Shown here: in pieces, positions 2,864 to 63,756 of the stretch | Position numbering within the stretch: the first letter of the stretch is position 1 | Layout of the letters: each line of letters begins with the position of its first letter | Source: a virus | IMG/VR virus record: IMGVR_UViG_3300028833_000003 | Length of the DNA stretch: 64,000 nucleotides | Reading direction: 5' to 3' (one strand) | Position numbers and translations under genes: made by a program | Notes under the pieces: model-generated | Database searches by the model: none | Seen by the model: only the letters and a program-made list of their open reading frames with translations | What the model was told of the DNA's origin: nothing

Positions 2864-2867
2864 ATAT

Positions 2868-4646: not shown

Positions 4647-4658
4647 TCCCTCACTTAT

Positions 4659-4814: not shown

Positions 4815-4896
4815 GCCCGAGTGGCGGAATGGCAGACGCGCTTGACTCAAAATCAAGTTCGAGAGAGTGTGGGTTCAAGTCCCACCTTGGGCACCA
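4815..4896 (+). tRNA. tRNA-Leu(CAA)
   Basis: Type II tRNA. Acceptor GCCCGAG/CTTGGGC, anticodon arm CTTGA-CTCAAAA-TCAAG, long variable arm, A73, CCA encoded. Confidence 0.9.
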
Positions 4897-5015
4897 GATT
4901 GTTGTCCGGCCGGCAACCCAGTGGATGGATTGTTACGCATCCCGTGCTACTACTGCGAGAGGGATCACGCTTAGGCTTTGCATGCGCACCACGGCCCATG
5001 AAGGTAGCACACTAT

Positions 5016-5092
5016 GCTCCCTTAGCCCAATTGGCAGAGGCAGTTGGCTAAGAACCAACACAGTGAGAGTTCGAATCTCTTGGGGAGTACCA
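5016..5092 (+). tRNA. Type-I tRNA with Leu-box anticodon AAG; identity unresolved
   Basis: Same acceptor GCTCCCT/GGGGAGT and A73-CCA as the tRNA at 2788. Anticodon arm GTTGG-CTAAGAA-CCAAC, 5-nt variable loop ACAGT, T arm GAGAG-TTCGAAT-CTCTT. Confidence 0.75.
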
Positions 5093-5566
5093 CCAGGGCA
5101 TGCCTGGTTTATATTGTCTAGCAACAAGGCAATCACACTGCAATGTTGTATGTAGGTAAATGATGGGGAGGAGTTAAAGGCGTCCTCTCTCTGGGGCAAT
5201 GCGGTAATACCTGCGCGCGGGTAGCAAAGTTACCCTACCAGTAGTTAGAAGTCTGTAAAACTTCCATTGGGCTGGCTGAGAGGCCCTGGTCCATCTTCCT
5301 TGCCAACAGTGATAGTCCTGTTTAAGGCAAAAAACATGCGGGTTAGCTAAACGCGATGATGGCTAGTTTTAGGGTTTTACGCCACGCTTTTAAGGACTTT
5401 GGCATTGATAAGCAAATTTGCTTGTCTATACTAGTTAATGCCGCAGTTCTAATTTGTCTGCACACTCGATTGGTAGTGTCCCACAAAAAAACTTGTTGAA
5501 GAGTGAAGTTGGTGGTTTTAGCTCTTAAAAAATATCTTATATGCGCTAAGATAAGGGCGCTTAATA
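5093..5566 (+). ncRNA. Candidate structured non-coding RNA (~470 nt) between the tRNA array and the next gene
   Basis: No credible ORF on either strand even with TAG read through. The track ORFs here run through tRNAs. The region is GC-enriched and hairpin-rich. It begins with CCAGG-GCATG-CCTGG. It shares ATGCGGTAAT and GCGCGC strings with 1-645. Confidence 0.4.
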
Positions 5567-5587
5567 GTGAAGGAGAGGAACTTAACT

Positions 5588-5902
5588 ATGAAATTTTTTT
5601 CTGAGGTAACGAATAGGGTTTATGATTCTGTTGATGCACTTAACGCCGCCGAAAAAAAGGTAGCCGATGAGAAGCGTGCTCGTGAGGAAGCCGAAGCTAA
5701 GAAAAAGGAAACTCGTGAAGCCCGCGCAAAGGAAGTTGAAGCTGCCCTTGAACTTGCTTCCAAGACTCGCTCAGATGCTTTGGAGAAGTTGAATGCTTTT
5801 GTGAAGGACTATGGTGCCTTCCATACTTCCATCAAGAATGTTGATTCACTGTTTGGATCAGAGCATGCATTGAGTACCCTGTTTGATCTGTTCAACTATT
5901 GA
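5588..5902 (+). CDS. Lys/Glu/Ala-rich coiled-coil protein
   Basis: ATG lies 9 nt after GAAGGAGAGG and is internal to track ORF 5567. It uses the AAG-rich codon regime. TGA stop, then a terminator. Confidence 0.6.
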   Translation: MKFFSEVTNRVYDSVDALNAAEKKVADEKRAREEAEAKKKETREARAKEVEAALELASKTRSDALEKLNAFVKDYGAFHTSIKNVDSLFGSEHALSTLFDLFNY

Positions 5903-5914
5903 TTAGATGCCTCT

Positions 5915-5939
5915 GGCGGCAGGCAAAAAGCCGCCTTTA
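5915..5939 (+). terminator. Rho-independent terminator-like hairpin
   Basis: GGCGGC-AGGCAAAAA-GCCGCC followed by TTTAT. Confidence 0.5.
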
Positions 5940-5942
5940 TAT

Positions 5943-6018
5943 GGGGATGTAGCTCAGTTGGTAGAGCGCCTGCCTTGCAAGCAGGAGGTAGAGGGTTCGA
6001 TCCCCTTCATCTCCACCA
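5943..6018 (+). tRNA. tRNA-Ala(TGC)
   Basis: Acceptor GGGGATG/CATCTCC with G3-U70, anticodon arm CCTGC-CTTGCAA-GCAGG, A73, CCA encoded. Confidence 0.9.
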
Positions 6019-6019
6019 G

Positions 6020-6136
6020 AAGACCTGTCAGCAATTATCTTTTTGCATTAGGAGCACGGGGTTCCAGGTTCGAATCCTGGGTCGGGGATTATTCCCCGGC
6101 TAGCTCAACTGGTAGAGCACGTTATTAGCGGGTCTT
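6020..6136 (+). ncRNA. Circularly permuted tRNA-like module (YrlA/Y-RNA-like candidate 1)
   Basis: Order of elements: closing helix AAGACC (6020-6025) with GGTCTT (6131-6136); T arm CCAGG-TTCGAAT-CCTGG (6064-6080); capped acceptor helix GTCGGGG (6081-6087), loop ATTATT, CCCCGGC (6094-6100); TA; D arm GCTC-AACTGGTA-GAGC (6103-6118). Confidence 0.5.
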
Positions 6137-6170
6137 GTATTTTAAAAGTATCAAAAGGAGAGGTTACACT

Positions 6171-6593
6171 ATGAGGAAAGTAATTAGTTTAATAATGGTG
6201 ATGCTTATGTTATTCTTGCCATTAACAAGTTAGGCATCTTGTGCATCCCCATCTGTCGAATCTTTGGTTTCATTTACACCTAAAATTAGCTGGCAATACG
6301 CCACAGAAGATAGTTTGTTTAGCAAATTTTATCCTGAGTGGGTAGATACATTCTTATTCAGGTCTGAGTGGAAAATTATAGACGCATTTGAAATTAGTCT
6401 GCAAGCACCGCATCGTCTTGTTACTATGTATTGGGCGGTAATGCCAGAGAATGTAAAAGATTTCGGTGTCTTGTTTGTGGGTAATAACCAGTTCATCTTG
6501 CGCTCTGCGTTTGTATATGATGAAACCCATCTTATGATTAATTTCACAAATGTATTACCTGGCGATTATCTTATGGTAATAGTTGCGCGATAA
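6171..6593 (+). CDS. Secreted protein with N-terminal signal peptide (one in-frame TAG at 6231)
   Basis: ATG lies 9 nt after AGGAGAGG. MRKVISLIMVMLMLFLPLTS-TAG-ASCASPS... It is in frame with track ORF 6264..6593 and ends in TAA. Confidence 0.6.
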
Positions 6594-6608
6594 TTTTCGC
6601 GCATAAAT

Positions 6609-6682
6609 GCGGCTATAGTATAGTGGTAATACGCGGCCTTGCCAAGGCTGAATCACGGGTTCAAATCCCGTTAGCCGCTCCA
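6609..6682 (+). tRNA. tRNA-Gly(GCC)
   Basis: Acceptor GCGGCTA/TAGCCGC, anticodon arm CGGCC-TTGCCAA-GGCTG, T arm ACGGG-TTCAAAT-CCCGT, U73, CCA encoded. Confidence 0.9.
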
Positions 6683-6686
6683 TTCA

Positions 6687-6719
6687 ATAGACCTGTTCAT
6701 ACAACAGGTCTATATTTTA
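6687..6719 (+). terminator. Strong hairpin followed by a T-run, inside the tRNA array
   Basis: ATAGACCTGTT-CATAC-AACAGGTCTAT, then ATTTTAT. Confidence 0.6.
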
Positions 6720-6720
6720 T

Positions 6721-6796
6721 GCGCGTGTAGCTCAGTCGGTAGAGCACGTGACTTTTAATCACGGCGTCGGGAGTTCGATCCTCCCCACGCGCACCA
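6721..6796 (+). tRNA. tRNA-Lys(TTT)
   Basis: Acceptor GCGCGTG/CACGCGC, anticodon arm CGTGA-CTTTTAA-TCACG, T arm GGGAG-TTCGATC-CTCCC, A73, CCA encoded. Confidence 0.9.
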
Positions 6797-6799
6797 TAT

Positions 6800-6874
6800 G
6801 GCTTGGTAGCTGAGACGGATTAGCAGCGGACTGAAAATCCGCATAGGTTGGATCGTTACCAACCCAAGCCACCA
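6800..6874 (+). tRNA. tRNA-Phe(GAA) with an unusual T loop (A54/U58)
   Basis: Acceptor GGCTTGG/CCAAGCC, anticodon arm GCGGA-CTGAAAA-TCCGC, T arm GTTGG-ATCGTTA-CCAAC, A73, CCA encoded. Confidence 0.85.
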
Positions 6875-6967
6875 GGGAGTCGGGAAGCTGTGTCATTAGT
6901 ATCACGTGCTACGGTGACAATGCAGTGAAACAATTGCGCATAATACCGAATAGAGACACTCCCACCA
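6875..6967 (+). ncRNA. Structured spacer RNA closed by an acceptor-like helix and ending in ACCA
   Basis: GGGAGT (6875-6880) pairs with ACTCCC (6958-6963), followed by ACCA (6964-6967). Internal hairpins are TGTCA...TGACA and GCAGT-GAAACA-ATTGC. No D or T arm consensus is present. Confidence 0.35.
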
Positions 6968-6995
6968 TTTTAAATAATCAATAGGAGGCCATTCT

Positions 6996-7205
6996 ATGAG
7001 TTTTAAAGACGCCTATAAAGCCATGCGTGAAGGTAAAGCTATTTCTAATACTGAGCATCCTGATGATCAGTGGGTTTGGAAGAATGACTAGATGATTTTC
7101 CAAAGTGGTGATGGCATTAGCTATCCGGTTAATGATATGCTATCTATTGAATATCTCCTCGATTAGATTGTACAAGATATTTGGTTTGTTGTAGAAGAAG
7201 AATAA
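6996..7205 (+). CDS. Small DUF2829-like protein (two in-frame TAGs: 7089, 7164)
   Basis: ATG lies 8 nt after AGGAGG. MSFKDAYKAMREGKAI...W...DIWFVV recalls the DUF2829 pattern (F..A...m..GK...W ... D.W). The family assignment is from memory only. Confidence 0.5.
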
Positions 7206-7217
7206 ACTTCTTCTTAT

Positions 7218-7292
7218 GTGGAGTGTCGTCTAATGGTAAGACAGCAGATTGTGGCTCTGCGAACGCAGGTTCGATTCCTGTCATTCCACCCA
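7218..7292 (+). tRNA. tRNA-His(GTG)
   Basis: G-1 opposite C73, acceptor TGGAGTG/CATTCCA, anticodon arm GCAGA-TTGTGGC-TCTGC, CCA encoded. Confidence 0.9.
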
Positions 7293-7365
7293 GCTAGCGG
7301 TGAGGGCAATTGACGAATGGGGCTAGCGGAATCCGCACGCGACGTCGGTAAAAAAGCTCCTATAT

Positions 7366-7440
7366 GCGCTGAACCCTCGTCGGTCGGGGAGAGGTCTGCA
7401 AAACCTCTGTTAGTGGGTTCAACTCCCACTCAGCGCTCCA
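7366..7440 (+). tRNA. tRNA-Cys(GCA)
   Basis: Acceptor GCGCTGA/TCAGCGC, anticodon arm GAGGT-CTGCAAA-ACCTC, T arm GTGGG-TTCAACT-CCCAC, U73, CCA encoded. Confidence 0.9.
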
Positions 7441-7456
7441 ATTAAAGAGGGGAGCG

Positions 7457-8140
7457 ATGCATATGTTATTAAGAAAAGGAATGCGTGGAGAATCGGTTCG
7501 ATAGTTACAAACACGTTTAACTGAATTAGGTTTCCTCAATAGTAAGATTGATGGAGTATTTGGTCCAGTAACTTAGAACGCAGTTATGAATTTTCAAATG
7601 CAAGCAAATTTAGGAGTTGATGGTATTGTTGGTCCAAAAACAGAAGCAGCATTAAATGATGTGAATGCGCCGCATTATGTTATACCAACTTCAACTGCGG
7701 TTCCTGCTACTGGCACTGCGCAAATGATGGATTGGTGGAAAAGTGATATTTCTAAAATCTTTGCGCGTGGTGTAGTGGCAACTATTACAGATGTAGATAC
7801 TGGCTTAGCTTGGCACGAAGTACGTAAAGGCGGCTCTAACCACGCTGACGTTCAACCATGTACTGCCGCAGATACTGCTGTATTGAAATAGGCTTATGGT
7901 GGAAAATGGTCATGGGCTAGACGCGCAATTTTTGTAACGATCAATGGTGTTAATTATGCCGCATCAATGAATGGGATGCCACACAGCGGACAATCTATTT
8001 TAGATAATAATTTCCCTGGACATCATTGTATCCACTTTACTAATAGCCGCACACATAATACAAATAAAGTGTGTCCAGACCATCGTAAAGCTATTGAAAA
8101 AGCAGCAAAAGCAAATTTAGGTGATAATTCGGTGGGTTAA
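7457..8140 (+). CDS. Peptidoglycan-binding (PG_binding_1-like) protein with an uncharacterised C-terminal domain (three in-frame TAGs: 7502, 7574, 7889)
   Basis: G..V.-TAG-LQ..L..LGF....DG.FG..T-TAG-.AV..FQ....L..DG.VG..T matches the PG_binding_1 repeat pattern. The frame is open from ATG 7457 to TAA 8138 only if TAG is sense. Confidence 0.75.
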
Positions 8141-8153
8141 TTAACCCACTTTA
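8132..8153 (+). terminator. Palindromic hairpin overlapping the stop codon
   Basis: GTGGGTTAA/TTAACCCAC followed by TTTAT. Confidence 0.45.
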
Positions 8154-8154
8154 T

Positions 8155-8229
8155 AGGGGAATGGTGTAATTGGCAGCATGTCGGTCTCCAAAACCGCTGG
8201 TCTAGGTTCGAGTCCTAGTTCCCCTGCCA
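8155..8229 (+). tRNA. tRNA-Trp(CCA)
   Basis: Acceptor AGGGGAA/TTCCCCT, anticodon loop CTCCAAA, T arm CTAGG-TTCGAGT-CCTAG, G73, CCA encoded. Confidence 0.9.
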
Positions 8230-8233
8230 TTAT

Positions 8234-8308
8234 GCGGGTATAGTTCAACGGATAGAATAACAGACTTCTAATCTGTACATCAGGGTTCAATTCCCTGTAC
8301 CCGTACCA
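8234..8308 (+). tRNA. tRNA-Arg(TCT)
   Basis: Acceptor GCGGGTA/TACCCGT, anticodon arm ACAGA-CTTCTAA-TCTGT, T arm CAGGG-TTCAATT-CCCTG, A73, CCA encoded. Confidence 0.9.
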
Positions 8309-8309
8309 G

Positions 8310-8338
8310 TTGATTTTTTTAAAAATTTTTGATATAAT
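8310..8338 (+). promoter_or_regulatory. Promoter cassette (TTGATT-N17-TGaTATAAT)
   Basis: -35 at 8310-8315 and -10 at 8333-8338. Class B leader ATATATGTAAGATAAAGAAAGG. Confidence 0.75.
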
Positions 8339-8375
8339 ATATATGTAAGATAAAGAAAGGAAGGGCAAACAGTAA

Positions 8376-8714
8376 ATGAAAATTACTCTGTTTGTGGATG
8401 ATGAACGCAGACCTCACAGAGAAGATGCGCATAGTTGGATACTTGTTAGAACTGGTAAGCTTGCAATTGATTTACTTGATGCTCTTCGTAAAATTAATTC
8501 TAAGAATGTTTTTGATATATATCTTGACCATGACCTTGGCTCTGGCATAAGCGGTTATGATGTAGCAAAATATATTGTAGATAACAATATCACAGAAGTG
8601 CAACATGTATATGTAATAAGTATGAATCCAGTTGGTGCGCAGAATATTTGTGATTTGCTTAATCATTACGGTTGGTCGGCAAAGCGAGTGGGGCTAGATG
8701 TTATTGGATTATAA
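8376..8714 (+). CDS. Receiver-like domain protein resembling the cyclic-phosphate-processing REC (cREC) domain of RNA-repair systems
   Basis: MKITLFVDDERRP...WILVRT...AIDLL......IYLDHDLG...SGYDVAKYIV......VYVISMNPVG..NI matches the remembered cREC pattern. No TAG. It runs directly into the suppressor tRNA. Confidence 0.55.
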   Translation: MKITLFVDDERRPHREDAHSWILVRTGKLAIDLLDALRKINSKNVFDIYLDHDLGSGISGYDVAKYIVDNNITEVQHVYVISMNPVGAQNICDLLNHYGWSAKRVGLDVIGL

Positions 8715-8807
8715 AGCCCCTTAGTTCAACGGTAGAACACCGGTCTCTAAAACCGTTATATCCCTCTGAAGGAGGTAGTCTGGGTTCGAATCCCAGAGGG
8801 GCCGCCA
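8715..8807 (+). tRNA. Amber-suppressor tRNA, anticodon CUA, with a long (23-nt) variable region
   Basis: Acceptor AGCCCCT/AGGGGCC (A1-C72 mismatch, then 6 bp), U8, D arm GTTC-AACGGTA-GAAC, anticodon stem CGGT/ACCG with loop CTCTAAA, variable region 8757-8779 with a CCTC/GAGG stem, T arm CTGGG-TTCGAAT-CCCAG, G73, CCA encoded. Confidence 0.8.
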
Positions 8808-8811
8808 ATCA

Positions 8812-8921
8812 TCGACACGTACAGCAAATATAAAGAGTAATCTTTATGTCATGGGTTCAACTCCCATCCTGCACACAGTGCATGTAGCTTAGTTGGTAGA
8901 GCGAAAGAATATAAGTGTCGA
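8812..8921 (+). ncRNA. Circularly permuted tRNA-like module (YrlA/Y-RNA-like candidate 2)
   Basis: Order of elements: closing helix TCGACAC (8812-8818) with GTGTCGA (8915-8921); hairpin ATAAAGA-GTAA-TCTTTAT; T arm ATGGG-TTCAACT-CCCAT (8851-8867); capped acceptor CCTGCAC (8868-8874), loop ACA, GTGCATG (8878-8884); TA; D arm GCTT-AGTTGGTA-GAGC (8887-8902). AAAGA (8904-8908) is complementary to TCTTT (8841-8845). Confidence 0.55.
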
Positions 8922-8932
8922 GTAAATTTTTA

Positions 8933-9025
8933 TAGACAGCATACTGCAATGAAATATTGGATAATATAACAGTTTTTATGCAACTATTATTAGAAGGTTC
9001 AAGTCCTTCGCTTATGCGCTGTCTA
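8933..9025 (+). ncRNA. Second structured module: bulged closing helix plus an orphan T arm
   Basis: TAGACAGCATA (8933-8943) pairs with TATGC-GC-GCTGTCTA (9013-9025) with a 2-nt bulge. T arm GAAGG-TTCAAGT-CCTTC lies at 8993-9009. There is an internal ATAATA/TATTAT hairpin. No D arm or anticodon arm is present. Confidence 0.4.
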
Positions 9026-9123
9026 GAATTTTATTAGGACATAATTAATCAACGCATTGTCCTTAAAATTGAATAAATATTAGGGTGTACATACCTAAAA
9101 TTTCCATGGAAAGGACGATGCTT

Positions 9124-9579
9124 ATGGCAGCTACAATTTTATTTACCAAGCCTGAAACTCAAGAGCTTGCTAATATATACCAAGAGTATGCGTTGCAAAA
9201 TGCTGAATTGGTAGCTAAGAAAGAACTTGCGTTGATTGGCATAGCCATTAACAATGCTGCGGCGAAAGGCGCCACTAGCATTAATTACAAGGCTTCAAAA
9301 GACTTTACTACTTTACAGGGTACTTATTATAATAAGGCTGTAGAGATTATGAACGCAGATTTCCAAAATGCTGGTTATTCTGCTGAAGCAACCACTGACC
9401 GCAATGGTTATGCAATTGCATTCTCTTTTGATTGGTCTGTAATTGATGGCGATGTTCCTGGTGGTAATACTAATCCATCTGCACCAGCAGCAGAGGAAAA
9501 TTGGGAAGAAATTCCTGATCCAGCCCCAGCAGACCCAGCAGAAGGAGAGCCAACCGAAACTCCAACAGATGGCGAGTAA
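9124..9579 (+). CDS. Hypothetical protein with a Pro/Glu/Ala-rich acidic tail
   Basis: Track ORF 9085..9579. In-frame ATGs lie at 9106, 9118 and 9124, and 9124 has the best spacing from GGAAAGGA. TAA stop. Confidence 0.55.
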   Translation: MAATILFTKPETQELANIYQEYALQNAELVAKKELALIGIAINNAAAKGATSINYKASKDFTTLQGTYYNKAVEIMNADFQNAGYSAEATTDRNGYAIAFSFDWSVIDGDVPGGNTNPSAPAAEENWEEIPDPAPADPAEGEPTETPTDGE

Positions 9580-9686
9580 TTGATTGATTAATGATAGGCT
9601 CCAACAGCAAGACAAGAAACACATTCATTTTTAACAAGAAAACGATAGGTGCTATAGGGAGCCTAGATTTTTATGAGGTATAAATA

Positions 9687-9839
9687 ATGATAACAGTAAG
9701 TTAGATTTTTGTTTTTCTTTTAATGTTTGATGCAGCCTGGGTATTCTATGGACTGCTACATAAAAAAAATATGTGGAAATGGATTTGTCTTTATTGGATA
9801 CTCCTCACATTAAAAAATGCAAGTGATCTAATTTTTTGA
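9687..9839 (+). CDS. Small single-pass membrane protein (one in-frame TAG at 9702)
   Basis: ATG lies 8 nt after GAGG. MITVS-TAG-IFVFLLMFDAAWVFYGLLHKKNMWKW... Ends in TGA at 9837. Confidence 0.35.
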
Positions 9840-9852
9840 GGAGATGAAAAAG

Positions 9853-10098
9853 ATGTATTCAAGAGCACACATTAGATGTAATGGCCCACAGGAAACTGCG
9901 CAATTAGTAAGTTTATTAAATACTGATGGTACAACCAATAAGTATATCTTAGAAACGGCAGATAGTGCTTATCGTGTAAATGCAAGAAGTTTCTTAGGTG
10001 CGGTATATTTTACTACTGAGCATGCTGATGATACTTGGTTAGTAAATACTGATAATGATGGTTGGTATCCTATTGGTATTGATAACTTCCGTATCTAA
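9853..10098 (+). CDS. Hypothetical protein (weak HPr-like resemblance, catalytic His absent)
   Basis: Track ORF 9844..10098. The second ATG (9853) lies 9 nt after GAGGAG. ...RVNARSFLGAVYF recalls the HPr ...KS.mg.m.L segment. Confidence 0.55.
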   Translation: MYSRAHIRCNGPQETAQLVSLLNTDGTTNKYILETADSAYRVNARSFLGAVYFTTEHADDTWLVNTDNDGWYPIGIDNFRI

Positions 10099-10121
10099 TT
10101 GGGACAAAATAGTCCCCATAA

Positions 10122-10198
10122 TGGGGTGTAGCCAAGTTGGCCAAGGCATGGGACTTTGACTCCCACATTCGCAGGTTCGAGTCCTGCCACCCCAGCCA
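10122..10198 (+). tRNA. tRNA-Gln(TTG)
   Basis: Acceptor TGGGGTG/CACCCCA (U1-A72), anticodon arm TGGGA-CTTTGAC-TCCCA, T arm GCAGG-TTCGAGT-CCTGC, G73, CCA encoded. Confidence 0.9.
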
Positions 10199-10202
10199 AT
10201 AT

Positions 10203-10277
10203 GCCGTCGTGGCTCAATGGTAGAGCAGCTGATTTGTAATCAGCAGGTTGTAGGTTCGACTCCTATCGGCGGCTCCA
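10203..10277 (+). tRNA. tRNA-Thr(TGT)
   Basis: Acceptor GCCGTCG/CGGCGGC, anticodon arm GCTGA-TTTGTAA-TCAGC, T arm GTAGG-TTCGACT-CCTAT, U73, CCA encoded. Confidence 0.85.
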
Positions 10278-10541
10278 AGAGAGCATACTCTTAACCAATG
10301 TCGATTGCAGGTGGTATCGTTAAATCCACCCCAGGCGGACCAGAGGATAATGCAGACGTGCAAAAATGCCCCAAACCCAGTGCGGTTTGTCAGTCGTCAC
10401 AATCGGGACAAGCTGGTCTAAAGATGGAAAGCCGGCTCATTACAGCAATGTTAGCCAGAGTAGTATAAAAGGCAAGTACAGCGCAGATGACAATGCGAAG
10501 ATTTCGGTTCGACTCCGAACTAAAAATCCATCTTGAAATAT
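10278..10541 (+). ncRNA. Candidate structured non-coding RNA (~260 nt) between tRNA-Thr and tRNA-Ser
   Basis: No ORF. Helices: AAGAG/CTCTT, GGTGG-TATCGTTAAAT-CCACC, GACCAG (10339-10344) with CTGGTC (10413-10418), TTGTC/GACAA, AGATGGA (10422-10428) with TCCATCT (10526-10532), and a T-arm-like TTCGG-TTCGACT-CCGAA. Confidence 0.4.
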
Positions 10542-10630
10542 GGGCGTGTGGCCGAGAGGCTGAAGGCTATGGTCCTGAAAACCATCGTGGTGATGAGCCA
10601 CCGTAGGTTCGAATCCTACCGCGCTCGCCA
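10542..10630 (+). tRNA. tRNA-Ser(TGA) with non-canonical C33
   Basis: Type II tRNA. Acceptor GGGCGTG/CGCGCTC, anticodon arm ATGGT-CCTGAAA-ACCAT (perfect stem; the loop has C at position 33), long variable arm, T arm GTAGG-TTCGAAT-CCTAC, G73, CCA encoded. Confidence 0.8.
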
Positions 10631-53038: not shown

Positions 53039-53040
53039 AA

Positions 53041-53089
53041 AAAAATAAAGGGACGTAGATAAAAAATCTACGTCCCTTTATTTTTTTTT
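53041..53089. terminator. Bidirectional terminator at the convergence of the plus and minus modules
   Basis: AAAGGGACGTAGAT-AAAAA-ATCTACGTCCCTTT, flanked by an A-run on one side and a T-run on the other. Confidence 0.9.
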
Positions 53090-53764: not shown

Positions 53765-55183
53765 TCAAGCGGTCGCTGTTGTCGCTTTCGCTAATTTTTG
53801 GAGCGCTGCTACTAATTCTTTTGCTTCTATCTCACTTGAACACGCCACCTTTACATACCAAGATTTTGGTGTATCAGGTGTGGTAGGTTCAACAGGCACA
53901 GATACAGGAATTAAAAATTCATTCATCATATATCCGGTCTGTCCGTTATACATAATGCGGTCCCATTCAGTGCCATGATCAATAATATCAACAATAGTCC
54001 CAGTTGATATTTTTGCTATTACACCAAAATTAGTGCCCGCGCCAGAACGCATACGCACTGTCGTGCCGCTTTTTGATTTTACTGTTGCCTAGTATAACAC
54101 TGATAAAACCTCCCCTTCTGATGTACCAGCATTTGCTAGTTCTTCTGGTGTATATAAACCCGCGGGGATTGCATAGTGCGTCCAGCCATATGTACCTAAT
54201 TCTTGACGTTTAACGCCAGACTTGCTACCAGCTGCATGCATAAAAGTGCCATCGCCCAGATAAACACCAGTATGTGACATTGGATTAGATGTTGGTGATT
54301 CATGATATAAAGCACAAATCTTATCTTTTGGCATCTAATCAATTGGTCCTTTTCGCACCCAGATACTTGATTTCCATTGTGAAGATGCGCCAGATACTAA
54401 GGAAATACCAATTTGCGCGAAGCATAACTTCGTAAATCCTTGGCAATCATAAACCTACTTACCGAGCCACTTCTTTACAATGTTATAATCAACTTTGTCT
54501 GGATATTGAGCAATACGCGCACGAATAAATTGTTCGGTTGCAATTTGTCCTTGAGCACCATAGATATAACCACAACCTTCTTTACTTAACGCATACTCTC
54601 TGATTACTTTCTCTTTCTCCTATGAGGTCATTACTTCAAATACCTCCTTTACTACTGCACCAGGATAATAAAATTGTAAAATATCCTAATATGTAAAGCC
54701 CATATTTGCCATCTTCTTTGCGCCAACTTGGCTCATACCAACACAATGTCCATTGCGCGCAGTAGTTGTATAGGGGTCATCTTTACTAACTAGCCAAGCG
54801 CGTTCTCCACCCCAGACTTCTTTAGAGCTTTTTATATGTCCGCCATTGCTAGAAGAGAAAGGCACTGGGCTACATAAAGTGTTTTTATATGTTAAAACTA
54901 ATGCATTAGTTGCTTCAACACAACGATAAGTAGCAGCATAAGCATTATCAATTGATCTCGAATATCGATATGCCTAATGCTTAGCGCTATTATCTGTCAT
55001 ATTTTTAATAGTATAAGCATTAGTTCGTGCGGCAATTGCTTGGGCTTTTACAGCTTCATCCGGCCCATTCATTTCACTAGGAACACAACCTAGCAAATAT
55101 GTTTCTGGATGAATATTGATCGTGTCATTAACATTAACGCCCCAAGCTTCCGCATTACTTTCTCTTGTTAAAGTTAATCTCAT
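53765..55183 (-). CDS. Three-domain endolysin: SpoIID-like, NlpC/P60 and SH3 (six in-frame TAGs; plus-strand 'cta' at 54974, 54686, 54620, 54455, 54335, 54089)
   Basis: LLGCVPSEM..P.EAVKAQAIAARTNA and GHCVGMSQVGA...ILQFYYPG are SpoIID-like. YDCQGF ... HTGVYLGDGTFMHA is NlpC/P60. TVRMRSGAGTNFGVI...G..V......W.RI...G.TGYM is SH3. There is no TAA or TGA between the domains. ATG 55183 lies 7 nt after GGAGA and overlaps the upstream TAA. Confidence 0.8.
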
Positions 55184-56343
55184 TATAATTTCTCCAATAA
55201 AAGCGCCCATTGCGCATGTGTTATGGGGGTTTCAACTTCATCTATATTATCTGGGATTTCATAATTTTCATTACGCCCTTGCAATTGATGCATTAATATA
55301 TCGTAATGGTTCTACGTAATTGGAATGTCATAATCCCAATCCAAAGTGTTAATAGCTGGCATAATGGCTGCCATTTGCGCACTTTCTTGTGTTAATCTAT
55401 TAACATGGCCGATAAACTAACGACATAATGTATATGCAGTCATTAAGTCATCAATCTAAAACATAGTTTCATTCTCATCTTCTAATGTATCAATAAAAAC
55501 AAAAGAAGCGCTTCGATAGAATTCATTTGATGTATCTAATGAACAACCTGCTGAACCAACTATTTTAGAGTCTAAAACTGCACATACTTTAACATATAAT
55601 GAAGGTGTTGTGTTAATTTCATTATAGTTTTTTGTACCAAGAAACGATGTTAAAGGAACAATCATAGATGTCTAATTTGTACGTTCCGTATCAATCCAAC
55701 CTAAAGAAACTAATTCTCCACTGTTTGGAGTTAATAATGTTTTATCATTAGGCCCAGCAAATACACCCACAGAATAATGATCAATTGTACCAGTAAAATT
55801 TTCTGGTGGAGACCAGCGCACCGCTACACGATTATAATACTAAGGCCATACTTCTATTTCTACTGGCGCTGGAATAGAAGTATCAATAGTTAAACTACGA
55901 TAGTAAATACGTACATCTACATAACTAATAATAATCGTTCCATTAATTGCGTAAGGCCAAAATGTAATCTAAAAAGTTTGGCTTGTCTTATTAGTCAAAC
56001 CTGTTATTTCATATTCATAACTGCCAAACGTTGAACCATTAATATTGCGAACTGGAAACTCTGAACTTTCTAAATAGTTAGTCCCGAAACCAACTCGTCC
56101 TTTACAATTCATTTCATAGTTAAAATCAATAACAGCTTTTGTAATTTCAACTCCGCCAGGAGGAGGATTACGTAATGTACAATTAATAGAAATAGTAGTG
56201 CCGCAGAATTGTAATTCTTCAACTGCTGCGGCCTGTGGAACATGTATATAAGTCGCCGGAGTTTCGGCGCACTATGAACTACTTTTAATTGGTTGCCCAG
56301 ATGCTATGGGATAATATGTATATTTACAATTTACATTCGCCAT
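55183..56343 (-). CDS. Structural protein with an FN3-like segment (seven in-frame TAGs)
   Basis: One frame is open from ATG 56343 to TAA 55183-55185. 'cta' at 56272, 55969, 55840, 55672, 55456, 55417 and 55312. VAVRWSPPENFTGTIDHYSV is FN3-like. Confidence 0.55.
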
Positions 56344-56366: not shown

Positions 56367-56705
56367 TTATTCACCATCATCTGCGTCTAAATCTTCACTA
56401 GAAGAAAAATTAACATACATTTCAAAATTGTCTCCACCATTGTATGTTTCTTGAATAGATGTAATTCTACCTTGAACATCATTTAAATCATAAATATTAT
56501 TACCACTATCACCTTTAATAGTAATACGAGAAACAGTCTGTGGCATTAAAGTATTCAAGAAAGTGGCGGTACTTGCACCAGGAACCAAACTAATATAAGC
56601 ATTGCTTACTAAATCATTCTGTTCCTTGTCATATGTAGTAGTACGACTATAATTTACGAGTTGAATAGCATGAGCTGCGTCACTATTAAAAATAATTGTT
56701 GCCAT
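56367..56705 (-). CDS. Hypothetical protein with an acidic C-terminus
   Basis: ATG lies 8 nt after AAGGAGG and is internal to track ORF 56367..56753. No TAG. Confidence 0.55.
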   Translation of the reverse strand: MATIIFNSDAAHAIQLVNYSRTTTYDKEQNDLVSNAYISLVPGASTATFLNTLMPQTVSRITIKGDSGNNIYDLNDVQGRITSIQETYNGGDNFEMYVNFSSSEDLDADDGE

Positions 56706-56718: not shown

Positions 56719-57702
56719 TTATAAATTACCAAATAATAGTATATAACTATCATCTATTGTATTTATATCAGTAGCGCTCGCCCAGCACCATACTGACATA
56801 ATCGCATTAAATAACATATCTTTATTTGTCTATGTTATCTAATTATCTTTAAGTAATTGGCCTACTCTTTTATCAAAATTTGACCGTAAAATTTTTTCAT
56901 CATAACCATCTTTATTTTTTCGCATCTAACAATCCCATAATTTTCCATCACAATCAATAGTGAATGAATCAATGCCTGCCATACAATGCGGAGTTTGTTT
57001 AGGTACTTCTATGGTTCCAAACCATTTATAATAATTCTCTGCATCATAACCGAAATAACGACCAGGCACTTCAATGGTCGGCTTTGCACCGATATCATCA
57101 ATATTAATATATGGTCTTTTTTCTACTAAAGGTATCATTTTATCATGTAATTCCTACGCCCATGCATACCAAACTGTAGAGTCGGTGCGCAAATTAATTT
57201 TAGTTAATGTCGATTTAGTAGATATTTTTAACTAAAAATTATTGGTCGGCATTTTCGTTGGGCAAGAATAAATTAAATGCTCTAGCGCGCGGATTGAATT
57301 TTTATACGCACCTTTCTAACGATTAAAATCATTCATATCTTCTGGACCATCAATATTAAATTGGATATGTAATGTTACATCATATGATAATAATGGCATG
57401 ACGAAATAACGGTATAATTCTGATGTACCGTTTGTAGAAAACATAATATTTTTGATTTGCGGCCATCGCTTTAAAATTGCAGTAATCATTGCTGAAAAAT
57501 ATGGTCCATTAAGTGATGGCTCCATTCCCCATAATCCAATACTGGTAGTTTCTGGGGTGATAGTTTCAAGAATGGTTTTTGTAAATGAACCATTCTTGAA
57601 ACACTCCTAAATGCGTTTATTATCATGCTCTTGATATTGCATACAACAATAAGCACATTTTAAATTACATGCATCGGAAAAATAAATGTTAAGATTTTTC
57701 AT
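56719..57702 (-). CDS. Radical-SAM enzyme with a Twitch/partial-SPASM C-terminal motif (seven in-frame TAGs)
   Basis: N-terminal CNLKCAYC (Cx3Cx2C) at residues 12-19. HCMAGIDSFTIDCDGKLWDC equals C-x12-G-x4-C. Track ORFs 57316 and 56926 share the frame with ATG 57702. 'cta' at 57607, 57316, 57232, 57154, 56926, 56839 and 56830. TAA at 56719. Confidence 0.75.
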
Positions 57703-57793
57703 CTTTTATTTGCACTCCACATAAAGCATTACATAAAACATTACAAAACGAAGTTTCTGTAATATTTTGATTATTATCTTCTTGCCAACGCAT
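57689..57793 (-). CDS. 34-codon Cys-x3-Cys-x3-Cys peptide ORF, translationally coupled to the radical-SAM gene (candidate precursor peptide)
   Basis: MRWQEDNNQNITETSFCNVLCNALCGVQIKDEKS. ATG lies 8 nt after AAGGTG. Its TAA lies 11 nt downstream of the radical-SAM ATG, giving a 14-nt overlap. No TAG. Confidence 0.45.
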   Translation of the reverse strand: MRWQEDNNQNITETSFCNVLCNALCGVQIKDEKS

Positions 57794-57795: not shown

Positions 57796-60700
57796 TTATT
57801 TCACCTTAATCCATATTCTATTATTTACAGGAACTGCCTTTTCACCCCAAATTGTGTATTCAGGTACTTCACTAACATAGCCTATAATACAATCAGGATA
57901 CTAAACAATCTCTTCTCTTGTCATAATATCTATCGTACCATTAGGAGCAGCACATACTGCCATACCAGCGTGATAATTTGTTCTATCTTGATATGTATAT
58001 ACTAGAACACGACCAGCAACAGCCACTGGTGTTTTAGCCGTTTCAGTTTCACCTTGCGCAAAACCATAGGTATCAGATACAATAGAAGCGCCTGGTATTA
58101 GACGTTCTTCTGTACGAGTCATAATACCATTGTCATTTTCTTGTACGCAACGTCCAGCTTCTAATTCTGTCGTGCAACGATATTCCGCATAGTCATTCCA
58201 AGCAGCGCCCATTAAAACGCCAGCAGATAAATCAGAATAAATTGCACTACTGCCCAAATATAAACATGCTTTACTACTAGCATTAGCACGCCAAATTATA
58301 GCATCTGTAGTTGGATTTGCAGAAGGACCTGTAAAAACTAATTGTTTTCCTCTTCCAACTGTTATATTTTCAGTTGATGTAATACCAGCTGCCGTTAAAG
58401 CACCTGCAGATGATATATATGCACCTGCTGAAGCACATGGTACAATATTAGTTTGCTCTGCACTACCGCTTGGTGTGGTAGGCGTACCCAATAAATACGC
58501 TGTCCAAGTTGGTGATGTGGCAACTTTAACATTAACAAATTTATCAGTAGTAGTTATCTATGCCCATGTTGGCTCACCACTACCATTTGATTTTAAATAA
58601 TAGTTCTTAGTACCAGCACTAGTAGGAGCGTAGAAACTAGCTGATGTAGTTGCTGTACCATTTAATGTGACAGTACTTCCATCGCCCCATTCAGGCACAC
58701 TAGCACCCATTTTTAAGAATTTACCAGCCGCACCTTTACCTAAACGTGTTGGTGTATTAGCAGCAGACCAATAAATTATATCACCTGCGTGAGTACCAAT
58801 AGATTTAGGAATTGCATAGTCAGAAAAATTTAACTAATCTAATACATTAACCCAACCGCCATTAGTAGTGCTATTTTGAAGAGCACCACCTGCTACGCGT
58901 TTATAATAAATACCATTTGCATTAAATGGAATTGCGAGGTCAGTATAATAACCAGAATTATTTGCATGATTACATCTAATAATATGAGTCCAAGTAGCAC
59001 TAGAAAATGGAGTATCATTTACTTTAACTGCTCCCTATCTAGCAGCACTAATATTGAAATATTGTAAGCCATTCCAACCATAGTCCATACGTGTATTGCT
59101 ACTTAATTGCGTTGATGTAGTTGCAGTTGTAGCATTACCAGACAAAGTACCAGTAATTGTGTATCCACCAGTAATTGTTTTAGCATATGGATCAATAACT
59201 AATGCAGTACCGACACCAGTTTTTGTCGTTCCATCAGCAGATGCAATACCAAAAATACGGAAATTACTATTTAAATTATCTAAAACAATACCCGCTTTTG
59301 TTGTTGCATTTGCGGCAGCACATAAATGAAGTTCTCCACCTTCGCCAGAGCCATCTGGTTTAATATCTATAGTACCATTGAAATAGCTTGGTCCAGCAAC
59401 AGTTAAGTTATATGATGAATTAAAGTTACTATTAACAGCCAATCGAGAAGTAGCTTTAATACCATTGGTTCTAAAAGCGGCGCCTCTACTTTCAGATGTT
59501 ATAAGTCCAATAGTAAAATCAAATAATGAATCTGCTGAAGTATTATATCTGTCACCAATAAAATATGCTTTTTGGCTACCATCATTAAAAATTAATTTTG
59601 GGCCACCTAATGATTCATTATAAGCCGCTGTTGCACCTGTATCTGATCCAGAGACAGTTCCAGTTATCATAACATTGCCATTAAATGTAGTACCAAGTGT
59701 ATTATAGTCTATTGATATTGCATTTTTTGAATATGTAGTTTGCGCAGATGTAGTATAATTAGTATTAAACTATAATAAACCAGATGTATTCAAAATCTAC
59801 CAAGACGCACTAGAATTACGATAAAACTCAAGACCTACGGCAGCTGTTCCAGCACCTTTTAAAACTAATTTACCAGTTTGCGTAGTAGTAGATGAATTAT
59901 CTGCACCATCAATTAATAAACCAGTGGTTGTTGCAGTAATGCGCGCGCTATAATCAGCAGTGCTAGTATTTGTTGCGTGGAAATCAATATATTTACCAAT
60001 TTCCATTACACCATCAGAGCCAATTAATGGCGTACCTCTAAAATAAGCACCAGCTGCTGGGGCTAAATTAGATCTATAATTACTTAAACCAAGAATGGTC
60101 GCTCCGTTGGTTTCATCTAAAATGCGGCGCCAAGATTGCCAAGTGCCATTATTTTTACCGCGCACACTTAACTGTCCAGTTCGATAATCCTAAAAAATTT
60201 CTGTTATCCAAGAATTATTATACCACTGTGAAATTAATGCACCATCTGTCTATTGATAATTCCAAGCAGCTTTAGTCAAGCCAGATACATAGCCTAGTGC
60301 ATTAGTGCCAGGGCCATTACCATCAATACCAAGATTTGTGCTTGTGGTAACTTTAAAATTAGTTAAATTAGATGCGGTGGTAGAAGTATCAGAACTATTA
60401 GCATGATTAACTGTGCCACCATCTACTGCAACAGTTACATCATCATATGCAATCGCTCCAATACTTGTAGTAACATCAGGATAAACTTCAATAGATGTTT
60501 TTTTATCATCCGCTGTTGTATTATTTACTTCCGTACTTGCAAGCAATGTCCATGCATAATTAGCACCTTCTAATAAGTATGCATATGCACGCATATAAGT
60601 ACCACATTTTACATACACATCACATTGCGCAGATTGACCAGAAGCACCTTTACGAGCAATTCTAACATCACCAACTGCAAAACCATAACGCACTATCCAA

Positions 60701-63700
60701 GTAGCGCTTACTGAAGTTGCTGCTGGCGGGTCTGCACTAGCATTATTAGCACGAGCAGAAATTTTAATAACGCCGTATTTACCACCAGAGTATCGAGAAT
60801 GTATAAATAAAATTGCATCTCTATCAACATATGAACCAGTTCCTAAATTAGTAGTAGCTACACGATGCCAAGGATAATGATTAGTATTACCAGAATTAAC
60901 AGTAACATAATTATGATACCAAGTTAATGCTGTTGGAGTACCATTATTAAGATAAATACCTCTACACTCACTGCCAACTGTTGTTGTACCTAATTTAGAT
61001 GCTGCACCAGTCAAATTACCAACAAAACCATTAGTTGCAGTTACGCTGCCTGGGAAAGTGCTATTACCACTAGTATCAAATAATTTAATTTCTTTAGCAA
61101 CTATATTAGAAGTATTGTAACGTCTAACTACAATCTATTCGTTATTACCATCATCGCCAACAGCAATTTCTAATAAACCAGCATTCGCGGTTTCTTCTAA
61201 ATGACGAATCCAACCAGCATCATTATTTCCATTACCATTTAATGGGTCAGCAAATGCAATAGCGTTACTATAAATAAATACACCACGCTTATTACTATTA
61301 TAAGGTAGTTTATCTGGCATACCAGATGTAAGAGCCATACGAATATGGTTTCCTCCCGCTGCGGAACCACCTTGTACCCACAACCCACCTGTCTAAATCG
61401 TTGTTGCACCATTGATAAATAAAACACTACCATCTGTTTGTTCTGCGTGCTAACCAATTGTTAATTTAGGTACTGATATACGCACACCAGTTGCAAGCGT
61501 AGTTCCAGTTGGAGCATGCAAACGTATATTACCTTCTGAATTATAAGACTTAGCATTGTCAGTAACACCAATGTAACAATAGCTTAAACTATTTGCAGAA
61601 CCAAAATTACCAAAATTACTTAAAATAGATGTTTTATCATTTTTATAAGCATCAAATACTGTCCAAGCCCAACCGCCACCGCCATCTTTAACACGAGAAC
61701 TAAAAAATTGACTAGTATTTTCTGAGCCATAAAACTAAGATGTACCTAAAGTTTTATAAGTTTCGCTTAAATCCCCAACATATGATGCGGCAATAGCAGA
61801 ACCGTGCCAAGTACCAGCAGTAATAGTACCAACTTTTGTAATTTCAGTTAAATTTTTTTCTGTTATAATTCTATAATTCTTATTAGCAGTCAAACCAGTA
61901 GCAACTGTTGGTAAATAATATGTTTCATAATAACCGGTAGTAGTAGTCGTAGCAGGATTATTAGGACTATATTGACGCCAATTCCATATGCCTGTTGTTA
62001 CATTAGTTGCATCACCTACATCATACCAGGTTTCAGCTACTCTATTAAGAGCATTATTTCGTAATACTATATCTTTGATATAACGAGAAGTCGAACCCCA
62101 ATAACCATATCCACGTACATCTAGTACATAGTTACCAACTAACGGTGCCATAGTAGTAATAGCATTATCTTGATTAATTGTAAATAAAGCATTTGATTTA
62201 GTTGAGCCATGATTATGCAACCAAATGCCTCGATTACCAGTATCTGTCCCAGCACTATATAAATAAATGTCACCAGCATTGCTTTGTGCTTTTACATTAA
62301 TTTCTTTGCCTGATGTTGTTCTACCAGCAACAATATGAGAATTAGTATGTATTTGTTTTGTTACGCCTAAACCGCCACCAATACGAACTGCCCCGTTATT
62401 ATAGTCAGTAGCATCTTGAGTATATTGTATATTGACTATATTACCCGCTGTGGCATCACCATAGCCCATAATAATCGGGCCACCGTTTATATTTAAATAT
62501 AGTCCTTGTTCTGATTCATTAACTTCAGTTCCACGATTACCATCTGAATCACAACCAGAAATTCCACGGACAATTAAAGCATTTGAACCAGCAGAACCAA
62601 TAATATGCACACTGCCAGTTAAATACGATGCCGCGCCAGTGGCAATACCACCACCAACTACTAATGCGCCAGTTGTAGAAGAAGTTGATGCCGTAGTGGC
62701 TTTAATTTTTACTGTACCCGCTTTATTAATTGTTAATAATCCATTATTACCATAAAGCCCTAATCCAACTGCATTTTCTGCATTGTTAGAACCATAATAA
62801 TGGAACTCAAGTACTGCCTAATTATTAGAACCATTACTCACACCTGTCATTAAGCATGTGTTACCACCGCTAGCTAAATTAGGAACTAAATGATTAATAC
62901 CCCAAGAATAAGTACCACTTTTCACCACAGTTGCTGGCGCGTTTGAGGTTAAATTAATCATACCTTTTGCGGCACTATCTGTGGCATTTGGATTATATTC
63001 TACTGTAGTTTGACCAGTGAATAACGCTCCGCCATTTTCATAAAAACGAATTTGTGCATCTGTTCTTGCAGTTGTACCATTATAAGTTGTATCTTTAACA
63101 TAACTAAATAATAAATCATCTGTATATGAAGAATCTGTATAGGAACCAATTTCCCAAGATCCATTACTAGTTTTTGTTGATACTACTGGTGAATAACCAG
63201 GAATTGAAGTTATTGCAATCAAAGCATTATCTCTGCCTTTATGCCAAGAAGATGCAATACCAGCTCTTGTAATAATATGACTTGTAATAAATTTAGAACC
63301 ATCCCAAGTTAAAGAACCACCTGATAACTTATTCGTTTGATTATAGGTAGTAAATAGTAATCGAGTATTACCATTTAAACCCTAAATTGCTAATGTCCCC
63401 GCGCTATTGACGTCACCCATTTGGGCATCATCACCGACTTTATTCCATGTGTTATTAGCGAAATTCAATGCGCCGGTCATAGTCCCGCCAGCCAATGGTA
63501 AATATTTATTAACTCCTAATGCGGTAATCATATTGGCCTTACTAACCCAGTAAGTTTTGCCACCATTTGCAAATGAATCAATCGCAAGAAAAAATTCTGC
63601 GGCGCTACCTTTTTCTGGTAATGCTACATTATCTTTCCAGCTTAATGGCGCGGTCATCTAACCGCCTTCTATAATTTGCGGTTTAAGAGTAGTAGTATAG

Positions 63701-63756
63701 AGCGTATCAGTTACTCTGGCGCTCCCTTGTATCAATGTATCTTTTAATTGTGCCAA
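57796..63756 (-). CDS. Giant tail fibre (1,986 codons, 15 in-frame TAGs)
   Basis: TTG start lies 7 nt after AAGGAGG (MAQLKDTLIQGSARVTDTLY...). Eight track ORFs (63382, 62818, 61735, 61135, 60250, 59797, 59035, 57901) share one frame and are separated only by TAG. Composition is Gly/Ser/Thr/Asn-rich with repeated G.AGKFL...P.W-type motifs. TAA at 57796. Confidence 0.75.

Follow-up and report, generated by a model that had tools for sequence, protein, structure and literature searches.

The closest described counterparts of the locus reported here are the ranthipeptide and sactipeptide systems (PapB with freyrasin, CteB with thermocellin, thuricin CD with TrnC/D, and SkfB), in which a short gene for a cysteine-containing peptide lies by the gene for a radical S-adenosylmethionine (radical-SAM) enzyme of the SPASM/Twitch lineage. 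The thuricin CD peptides have a C-x3-C-x3-C spacing, and SkfB illustrates that a Twitch domain can serve in the sactipeptide class. Radical-SAM-modified peptides are known as bacterial products, and the only phage-borne cases known to us are bacteriocin clusters that temperate phages carry as cargo. Here we describe a viral locus in a 64,000-nucleotide (nt) stretch of DNA, IMG/VR record IMGVR_UViG_3300028833_000003 (the whole stretch is referred to below as the window). In its late operon, a 34-codon micro-ORF (open reading frame) for a peptide with the same C-x3-C-x3-C spacing as thuricin CD sits between a tail-fibre gene and the gene for a 327-residue radical-SAM enzyme. Our search of the full-text literature found no description of a radical-SAM enzyme paired with a micro-peptide in phage tail or structural operons. 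The peptide gene and the enzyme gene very likely form a functional pair. With more modest confidence, we favor the reading that they are a precursor-peptide/maturase pair, a cassette resembling those for peptides synthesized ribosomally and modified post-translationally (RiPPs), embedded in the late tail-fibre and lysis operon of a phage lineage that is TAG-recoded and infects anaerobic Gram-positive hosts.

The genes of the cassette are tightly interlocked with each other and with the fibre gene (all late-operon coordinates given here and below are on the minus strand). The fibre gene (57796-63756; 1986 codons, 15 in-frame TAG) ends in a TAA at 57796-57798, and the Shine-Dalgarno (SD) site of the micro-ORF, AAGGTG (57802-57807), lies inside its last codons, 8 nt before the ATG at 57791-57793. 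The micro-ORF itself (57689-57793; translation MRWQEDNNQNITETSFCNVLCNALCGVQIKDEKS) starts 2 nt past the fibre stop, contains no TAG codons and carries the cysteine core CNVLCNALC (57719-57745); we propose that it encodes a precursor peptide of what we call type A. Overlapping it by 14 nt, the enzyme gene (56719-57702) begins at 57702 and ends with a TAA at 56719-56721. Seven in-frame TAGs interrupt its 327 codons, at codons 32, 129, 157, 183, 259, 288 and 291. Residues 12-19, CNLKCAYC (57646-57669), form the motif for the radical-SAM [4Fe-4S] cluster (C12, C16, C19). Residues 240-258, C240-x12-G253-x4-C258 (CMAGIDSFTIDCDGKLWDC; 56929-56985), form a SPASM/Twitch hairpin motif, and C306 (56785-56787) is a third invariant C-terminal cysteine, the presumed ligand of an auxiliary cluster. 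An earlier note, made by a model from the sequence alone, had read the fibre stop, the SD spacing, the 34-codon ORF, the overlap, both enzyme motifs and the TAG counts in the same way. It had also placed a 112-residue acidic protein, a structural protein, an endolysin and holins downstream. These genes are present, the second as a 386-residue protein and the last as small membrane-type proteins.

The micro-ORF is conserved in related phages. Enzyme homologues were collected by protein search (n = 4) and profile search (n = 28), all of them on TAG-recoded metagenomic contigs, and DNA was taken for 13 enzyme-homologue loci. Homologous micro-ORFs occur at 12 distinct related loci, whose enzymes are 32-95% identical to that of the window. 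Two types of peptide can be told apart. The window peptide (as aligned, MRWQEDNNQNITETS-FCNVLCNALCGVQIKDEKS) and its homologues in L004 (MRWQENDNDNITEIS-FCNILCNALCGVQIEDEKS) and L027 (MCWQDENINYETECLLFCNALCNILYGVYEENEKS) make up type A, and the enzymes of the latter two are 95% and 71% identical to that of the window. Type B, found at nine further distinct loci, follows the pattern MCxxLCIxLWIxF..DEEWFxD, as in L020 (MCNTLCISLWIDFDADEEWFND), L026 (MCNTLCIPLWIQFGSDEEWFDD), L002 (MCLGLCIQLWINFDEDAEWFNA), L028 (MFNTTCNLMCLMLWYETLEDqEWFNEES, where q is a TAG codon) and L029 (MCTLMCLLLWGVPEDEWYED). Type-B enzymes are 32-41% identical to the window enzyme and divide into four clades with mutual identities of 33-50%. 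Altogether, a homologous peptide gene accompanies the enzyme across four or five clades with 32-50% identity to each other.

A core C-N-x-[LM]-C-x-x-L-[C/Y/W] is common to both types, its conserved part being C-x-x-[LM]-C-x-x-L-[C/Y/W]; we regard the two types as homologous. Most of the peptides are 20-24 residues long, with 28 in L028 and 34 codons in the window. Type A has an acidic, Trp-containing stretch at its N-terminal end ('WQEDN' in the window), type B at its C-terminal end ('DEEWF'). No family match was found for the 34-residue peptide in Pfam, NCBIfam, PADLOC or PHROGs, or for a 22-residue type-B peptide in Pfam or NCBIfam. Every homologous micro-ORF has an SD site of the GAGGTGA or AAGGAGG type 7-9 nt upstream, often within the last codons of the preceding gene. 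The micro-ORFs lie just past a fibre or receptor-binding gene and usually overlap the start codon of the enzyme; those abutting the enzyme gene stop 8-14 nt past its ATG, which indicates translational coupling.

The number of conserved cysteines is smaller than the window alone suggests. The earlier note had taken C-x3-C-x3-C, by analogy with thuricin CD, as the meaningful spacing. What is conserved is C-x3-C and, after it, L-[W/Y/C]. Type B has Trp in place of the third Cys; L027 has Tyr there, but three cysteines stay in register through an additional Cys one repeat further upstream. The C-x3-C-x3-C string occurs three times in the six-frame translation of the window and is therefore not significant by itself; what makes it notable is where it lies and that the peptide is conserved. 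Given these chance occurrences and the unconserved third Cys, we rejected it as a defining signature. One chance-like instance, CSQDCSKTC (4095-4121, plus strand), lies in a 106-codon TAG-containing ORF of the tRNA region.

Is the peptide itself what selection maintains? A short ORF in a coupling arrangement with both neighbors could be a mere translational-coupling or regulatory upstream ORF whose product has no function, and the rapid divergence of type-A peptides outside the core, together with a mild local RNA hairpin (z = -2.1), is in keeping with this. We nevertheless consider it highly improbable. We estimated selection from the first 19 codons, so that the overlap with the enzyme gene is left out. 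Type-B genes found via the enzyme gave pN (nonsynonymous) values of 0.10-0.25 and pS (synonymous) values of 0.23-1.03; for seven type-B genes pooled, pN/pS is 0.27, amino acids having been conserved while synonymous sites came close to saturation. In type A, the window and L004 differ with a pN of 0.083 and a pS of 0.167. Cys, Trp and acidic positions are kept across enzyme clades that are only 32-50% identical, and the sequence is likewise kept in L001 and L021, where a different gene lies downstream of the micro-ORF. An RNA element in place of a micro-ORF was likewise rejected, since there is no Rfam match and the fold z-score is only -2.1.

The association also holds when it is approached from the peptide. 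A degenerate DNA pattern of the type-B peptide alone was searched against JGI metagenome contigs. Three of the four matches proved genuine (L031, L032 and L033), each with the order fibre C-terminus, micro-ORF (MCPGLCIDLWIPFDEDMEWFNE, MCPRLCIDLWIPFDEDMEWFNE or MCNALCISLWINFEEDEDWFND) and enzyme homologue; the fourth was a chance match inside a long ORF. No match to the micro-ORF DNA patterns was found in IMG/VR. A second route was a motif scan with C..[LMIV]C..[LMIV][WYCF], which added type-B peptides in L001 (MCNALCISLWIPFEEDEAWFDEEE) and L021 (MCNALCISLWIDFENDEKWFEEEE). There the peptide gene is directly 3' of a fibre gene, with 2-3 kb of receptor-binding-type genes between it and the enzyme gene. 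Every true copy of the motif has the expected location and strand, a start codon and an SD site.

At one locus the peptide gene and the enzyme's Fe-S cysteines are both gone. In L034 (logan:SRR30827642_587108), none of the six conserved cysteines is left in the enzyme homologue (5343-6158): it has lost the entire CX3CX2C motif together with the residues corresponding to C240, C258 and C306, and its 271-codon ORF is intact. The micro-ORF is absent from the same locus, and a Gp10_C gene directly abuts the pseudo-enzyme. L034 shares its gene order (fibre, small protein, Gp10_C proteins, enzyme and a protein of about 100 residues) with L020, which has both the peptide and an intact enzyme. The L034 protein may be a pseudo-enzyme with a non-catalytic role; it stands in a tail module and is followed by a conserved 99-residue protein. 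Because of the conservation across loci, the purifying selection, the reverse search and this correlated loss, we conclude from the comparative evidence that the micro-ORF is a genuine gene, that it is translated and that it depends for its function on an active enzyme. The central suggestion of the earlier note, a Cys-peptide gene coupled to a peptide-type radical-SAM gene in a phage late operon, thereby gains considerable weight.

A tail protein (the fibre, which has an invariant Cys and a conserved C-terminal domain, a neighboring receptor-binding protein or the Cys-rich 386-residue protein) could instead be the true target, with the micro-peptide as an accessory that depends on the active enzyme, such as an activator, a donor of a cluster ligand or an assembly factor. 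The cassette is always found among fibre or receptor-binding genes, the micro-ORF of L001 and L021 stays by the fibre gene and not by the enzyme, and L003 has an enzyme without an adjoining peptide gene. The dead homologue of L034, kept as an intact ORF in a tail module, hints at a non-catalytic and possibly structural role. Sister phages also offer a candidate substrate and enzyme of this kind. At 4680-6893 of L026, 3' of the enzyme, is a fibre-like protein of 737 residues with about 10 tandem Cxxx repeats (ACNVQCTNKCTGTCTGTCTGSCTGQCGNNCKNAC), weak matches to TIGR04117 and TIGR04114 and a precomputed PF27846 annotation. A second radical-SAM/SPASM enzyme is encoded in L001 (15627-16937), L020 (15343-16641) and L023 (7124-8425), scoring 331.8 bits on TIGR04115 (cutoff 350). 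This combination of a Cxxx array and a sister-phage maturase suggests, from sequence likeness, radical-SAM modification of the tail-fibre protein itself. For the cassette, we still judge a tail-protein substrate unlikely. No tail-protein feature tracks the enzyme, the flanking genes vary among loci, and the micro-ORF is the only component gained and lost together with the catalytic cysteines. In addition, the window encodes neither a Cxxx-array protein nor a second radical-SAM enzyme, and a tblastn search of the window with the TIGR04115-like second enzyme of the relatives found no homologue.

We next consider what kind of enzyme the peptide accompanies. Pfam recognizes a radical-SAM core (Fer4_12/Radical_SAM). 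The best NCBIfam match is the PapB ranthipeptide maturase (3e-13; 49.7 bits, cutoff 340), and the other best curated matches are streptosactin GggB, CcpM and HxsC. Curated-model matches end at about residue 170 and so cover the radical-SAM core only. The earlier note had proposed comparing the enzyme with SkfB, anSME and sactisynthase families by hidden Markov model. No sactipeptide or ranthipeptide maturase model, nor any other, reaches its cutoff; nor does the enzyme fall into the housekeeping families named there, sulfatase maturases and QueE. On these scores, the enzyme belongs to no curated family.

All 27 sequences compared have the six cysteines (C12/C16/C19 and C240/C258/C306), and at least 90% of them keep G253. 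Of the SPASM or Twitch domain proposed earlier, the enzyme shows only a Twitch-like region with three cysteines. CX2CX5CX3C was not found in the enzyme or the homologue alignment, so the domain is not a full SPASM domain with its seven-Cys motif, and the C-terminal pattern is Twitch-like, with three ligands for what we presume to be one auxiliary cluster. Alongside the CX12GX4C hairpin and the three invariant cysteines, the twitch radical-SAM model NF033640 gives 27 bits (cutoff 170). The protein opens directly with the core, its model starting with strand beta-1 and its cluster motif at residue 12, and so it has no N-terminal recognition domain. A RiPP recognition element (RRE; PqqD-like) is thus lacking in the enzyme, and the adjoining 112-residue protein gave no PqqD match.

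A profile of the family matched PDB sequences of an anaerobic sulfatase-maturating enzyme (anSME; 2.4e-9), ChlB and CteB. An AlphaFold (AF2) model was made on P0001, which is 95% identical to the window enzyme, using a 26-sequence alignment; its mean predicted local distance difference test score (pLDDT) is 90.5. Foldseek's top matches for it are CteB, BlsE, ChlB, anSME, DesII, SuiB and EpeE, with TM-scores of 0.44-0.52. If the predicted fold is a guide, this places the enzyme within the SPASM/Twitch group, mostly among peptide modifiers but not near any one of them.

Small-molecule enzymes commonly have Twitch domains, and most Twitch enzymes act on small molecules. The enzyme might thus be an auxiliary metabolic radical-SAM protein (sulfatase-maturase-like, viperin-like, or a modifier of sugars or nucleotides) unrelated to the peptide. 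That its best PDB sequence match is anSME, that there are weak pVip matches, and that BlsE, DesII and MoaA are among the fold neighbors all accord with such a function. Yet the scores are far under the cutoffs (30.5 bits against 349.45 for the anSME model TIGR03942 and 26.4 against 180 for viperin), the matches cover only the common radical-SAM core from residue 1 to about 170, and neither the location in a fibre operon nor the co-variation with the micro-ORF would be explained. We regard a small-molecule function as quite improbable.

Several observations weigh against the precursor/maturase reading and temper our confidence in it. The enzyme and its distant relatives score below every curated maturase cutoff, the full SPASM motif and the RRE are both missing, and small-molecule enzymes are found among the fold neighbors at TM-scores similar to those of the peptide modifiers. 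Type-A peptides change fast outside the core (window against L027, pN 0.27 and pS 0.38). The displaced peptide genes of L001 and L021, 2-3 kb from the enzyme and beside fibre genes, fit a fibre-related role as well. The motif scan that detected them is imperfectly specific, with about 5 chance matches in about 300 kb of unrelated loci. L003, a 3.2-kb contig, has an intact enzyme and no adjoining micro-ORF; its peptide gene could lie elsewhere, and it is the only informative locus of this kind, as L023-25 start too far downstream to tell. Finally, the relatives are all metagenomic contigs. In the place of the micro-ORF, between the fibre and enzyme genes, L003 has a near-consensus promoter-like spacer (394-447; TTGACA, 17 nt, TATAAT).

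On balance, the pair is most probably a modified-peptide system that the virus encodes, of a type not described before, and the peptide is, to go by the pattern of conservation and loss, probably the substrate of the enzyme. We propose the following mechanism. Late in infection, the tRNA(CUA) of the phage would let TAG be read as Gln, and the enzyme and the peptide would be made together. The C12/C16/C19 cluster would cleave SAM to yield a 5'-deoxyadenosyl radical. A second cluster, held by the three invariant cysteines C240, C258 and C306 of the Twitch-like domain, would leave one iron free for a Cys thiolate of the peptide; the structure of CteB is said to have such an open auxiliary-cluster site for a substrate Cys. 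The radical would then take a hydrogen atom from an acceptor carbon, and a thioether ring from Cys sulfur to carbon would form at the C-x3-C core. Thioether formation is the more tentative part of this scheme, and another radical-SAM peptide reaction is equally possible. Because the enzyme lacks an RRE domain, we propose the acidic Trp-containing stretch as the recognition element. No protease, transporter or exporter, or immunity gene is encoded with the cassette, and for want of a protease or exporter the product would be freed at lysis or retained with the tail. Its role could accordingly be that of a bacteriocin-like or signaling peptide released at lysis, or of a tail-associated peptide. 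The tight coupling to the fibre gene, the displaced copies of L001 and L021 and the dead enzyme kept in a tail module all leave room for a tail-related role.

Recoding is integral to the expression of this locus. ORFs of at least 100 amino acids total 47.8 kb of the window in the standard code and 69.0 kb when TAG is a sense codon. A suppressor tRNA(CUA), needed to translate the seven TAG codons of the enzyme, is encoded at 8715-8807 (plus strand). When 15 enzyme sequences derived from DNA are aligned, Gln is the residue most enriched in the TAG columns (62 of 539 aligned residues; background 3%), and these include several Gln columns that are otherwise invariant. Since the TAG columns align preferentially with Gln, we take TAG in the enzyme gene to be read as Gln. 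They favor Gln rather than Ser, Leu or Tyr, despite an insertion of about 20 nt that gives the tRNA(CUA) a long extra arm, unusual for a Gln-type tRNA and present also in L023 (after 8874). The plus-strand replication genes (Pol III alpha, GyrA, DnaB and ligase) are free of TAG; TAG-free early genes with TAG-bearing late genes are the early/late recoding pattern described for such phages. As TAG codons split the enzyme into eight pieces, standard-code gene calling hides such systems. The suppressor belongs to an array of 25 tRNA genes covering most amino acids (646-10630, plus strand), at the opposite end of the window from the late operon; in L023, a similar array directly follows the late operon. 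Just 3' of the tRNA(CUA), at 8821-8900 (plus strand), there is a weak match to YrlA, a Y-RNA-like family (30.4 bits against a gathering score of 69), cut off where the searched stretch ends.

The surrounding operon runs in the order fibre, micro-ORF, radical-SAM enzyme, 112-residue protein, 386-residue protein, endolysin and two small membrane-type proteins. No strong terminator was found within it, and a strong intrinsic terminator at 53040-53086 closes it. The conserved C-terminal domain of the fibre, as defined by sequence comparison (...AVCAAPNGTIDIMTREE...NNRIWIKVK, then the stop), also stands 5' of the micro-ORF in L001, L002, L004, L021, L027, L029 and L031-33; it had no match in Pfam, PHROG, PDB or INPHARED. 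The 386-residue protein (55183-56343) has a weak fn3 match. Several of its N-terminal cysteines are at positions shared with the L003 homologue, and the protein is conserved in L003 and L004 only. The endolysin combines SpoIID, NlpC/P60 and SH3 domains.

Directly 3' of the enzyme, the 112-residue acidic, Cys-free protein (56367-56705) was considered as a discrete RRE chaperone. Homologues of about 100 residues occupy this position in the window, L001, L003, L004, L020, L021 (and its duplicate L022), L023-25, L026, L028 and L034. No such homologue is present in L002, L029 or L031, all of which have peptide and enzyme, whereas one is retained in L034, where the peptide and the catalytic cysteines are lost; the chaperone assignment was provisionally rejected on these grounds. 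Since its presence does not track the peptide, it is probably not part of the cassette, and its distribution indicates that it is probably a tail-module protein and not a peptide chaperone. It has no match in Pfam, PADLOC or PDB, its L026 homologue none in NCBIfam, and PHROGs yields one marginal match of unknown function. A single-sequence structure model is all-beta at a low, unreliable confidence (pLDDT 48).

Searches further afield indicate a small family. Among 1.84 billion representatives, the enzymes of about 330 residues form about a dozen clusters at 50% identity, and longer relatives (420-480 residues) form about 130 clusters at E < 1e-30. tblastn with the enzyme and the fibre C-terminal domain found no match in 50,697 phage records. 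The replication proteins of the phage are about 37% identical to those of Enterococcus, SPbeta-like and Phass-1 phages, and by these comparisons it is a lineage without a cultured relative. Matches in GTDB genomes were generic radical-SAM proteins only and were judged uninformative; L009, for example, is an ordinary bacterial RiPP cluster with a protease and a transporter. IMG/VR holds only distant homologues, 24-29% identical. Three of these, on standard-code records (L005, 7665-11112; L006, 9140-12575; L007, 9067-12566), are 426-465 residues long and are located in tail modules, with a second radical-SAM/SPASM enzyme directly 3' and, on the 5' side, proteins of 114-188 residues that join a conserved N-terminal domain to Tyr/Ser/Asp/Gly-rich repeats. 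This arrangement could be another undescribed tail-associated system of radical-SAM targets.

We rate as new the enzyme family, the leaderless precursor type and the genomic setting: a peptide/enzyme pair that gene overlaps tie into the tail-fibre/lysis operon of TAG-recoded, apparently virulent phages and that is conserved over deep divergence. If the peptide is modified, the pair would represent a new minimal family of maturases, with no RRE and a three-Cys Twitch domain, together with a new leaderless type of precursor. It would also be a readily testable two-gene system, consisting of a peptide of 22-34 residues and an enzyme of about 330, and would raise the question of what use a phage has for a cross-linked peptide made beside its receptor-binding proteins. 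A bolder proposal, which we consider speculative and on the whole rather doubtful, is that these peptides are an unrecognized class of virus-native radical-SAM micro-peptides. They would be leaderless, 20-34 residues long, with C-x3-C-x2-L-W as their core and 'EEWF' as an acidic tail, matured by a minimal, RRE-less three-Cys Twitch enzyme and made stoichiometrically with the tail fibres by translational coupling. They would belong to the adsorption apparatus or else, once lysis frees them, act as a weapon or signal. Were this true, then together with the Cxxx-array fibre protein and the tail modules with twin radical-SAM enzymes of the relatives, radical-SAM cross-linking of tail components would be a recurrent, undescribed feature of phages of anaerobes.

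How, then, does the locus compare with systems already described? Radical-SAM genes of unknown role are known in phages, for example in the CP220-like phages of Campylobacter (PMC2853527). Like these and the 'Fe-S oxidoreductase' of uncultured Caudovirales in BFVD, the window enzyme is SPASM/Twitch-like and similar in fold, and those proteins have no assigned role. It has no sequence-level relationship to them, and for them we found no conserved peptide partner described. The CXXX-repeat system, which is defined bioinformatically by the TIGR04115 maturase and the TIGR04114/TIGR04117 targets, resembles the cassette in having Cys at every fourth position as the presumed target. The cassette is nevertheless distinct from that system, which relatives of this phage carry in addition, and the window enzyme belongs to a different family. 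Unlike its targets, the phage peptide has hydrophobic residues between the cysteines rather than Gly, Thr or Ser. TIGR04115 is not among the best 25 NCBIfam matches of the window enzyme, and neither the window peptide (at E <= 1) nor a type-B peptide (at E <= 10) matches TIGR04114 or TIGR04117. Anaerobic sulfatase-maturating enzymes differ in having the SPASM motif, and no sulfatase gene is present in the operon. With the Twitch enzymes BtrN, MoaA and SkfB, the window enzyme shares a CX12GX4C hairpin with a further Cys far beyond it, as one auxiliary cluster would require, and its C240-x17-C258 spacing is, we presume, that of Cys169 and Cys187 in BtrN. Most Twitch enzymes have small-molecule substrates, whereas this one has a co-varying peptide partner.

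The ranthipeptide and sactipeptide systems remain the nearest comparison. Like their maturases, the window enzyme has the CX3CX2C motif and adjoins a conserved gene for a Cys-containing precursor; its best curated match is PapB and its best fold match CteB, and its three invariant C-terminal cysteines make an auxiliary cluster with an open site for a substrate Cys plausible here too. It departs from them in lacking the seven-Cys SPASM motif, with one presumed auxiliary cluster instead, in lacking an N-terminal RRE and in scoring under the family cutoffs, including those for PapB, GggB, CcpM, SCIFF and RumMC. The phage peptides are leaderless, with only two conserved cysteines and, in type B, an acidic tail. 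The cassette is read in a TAG-to-Gln code from a structural and lysis operon of a phage, with no protease, transporter or immunity gene of its own.

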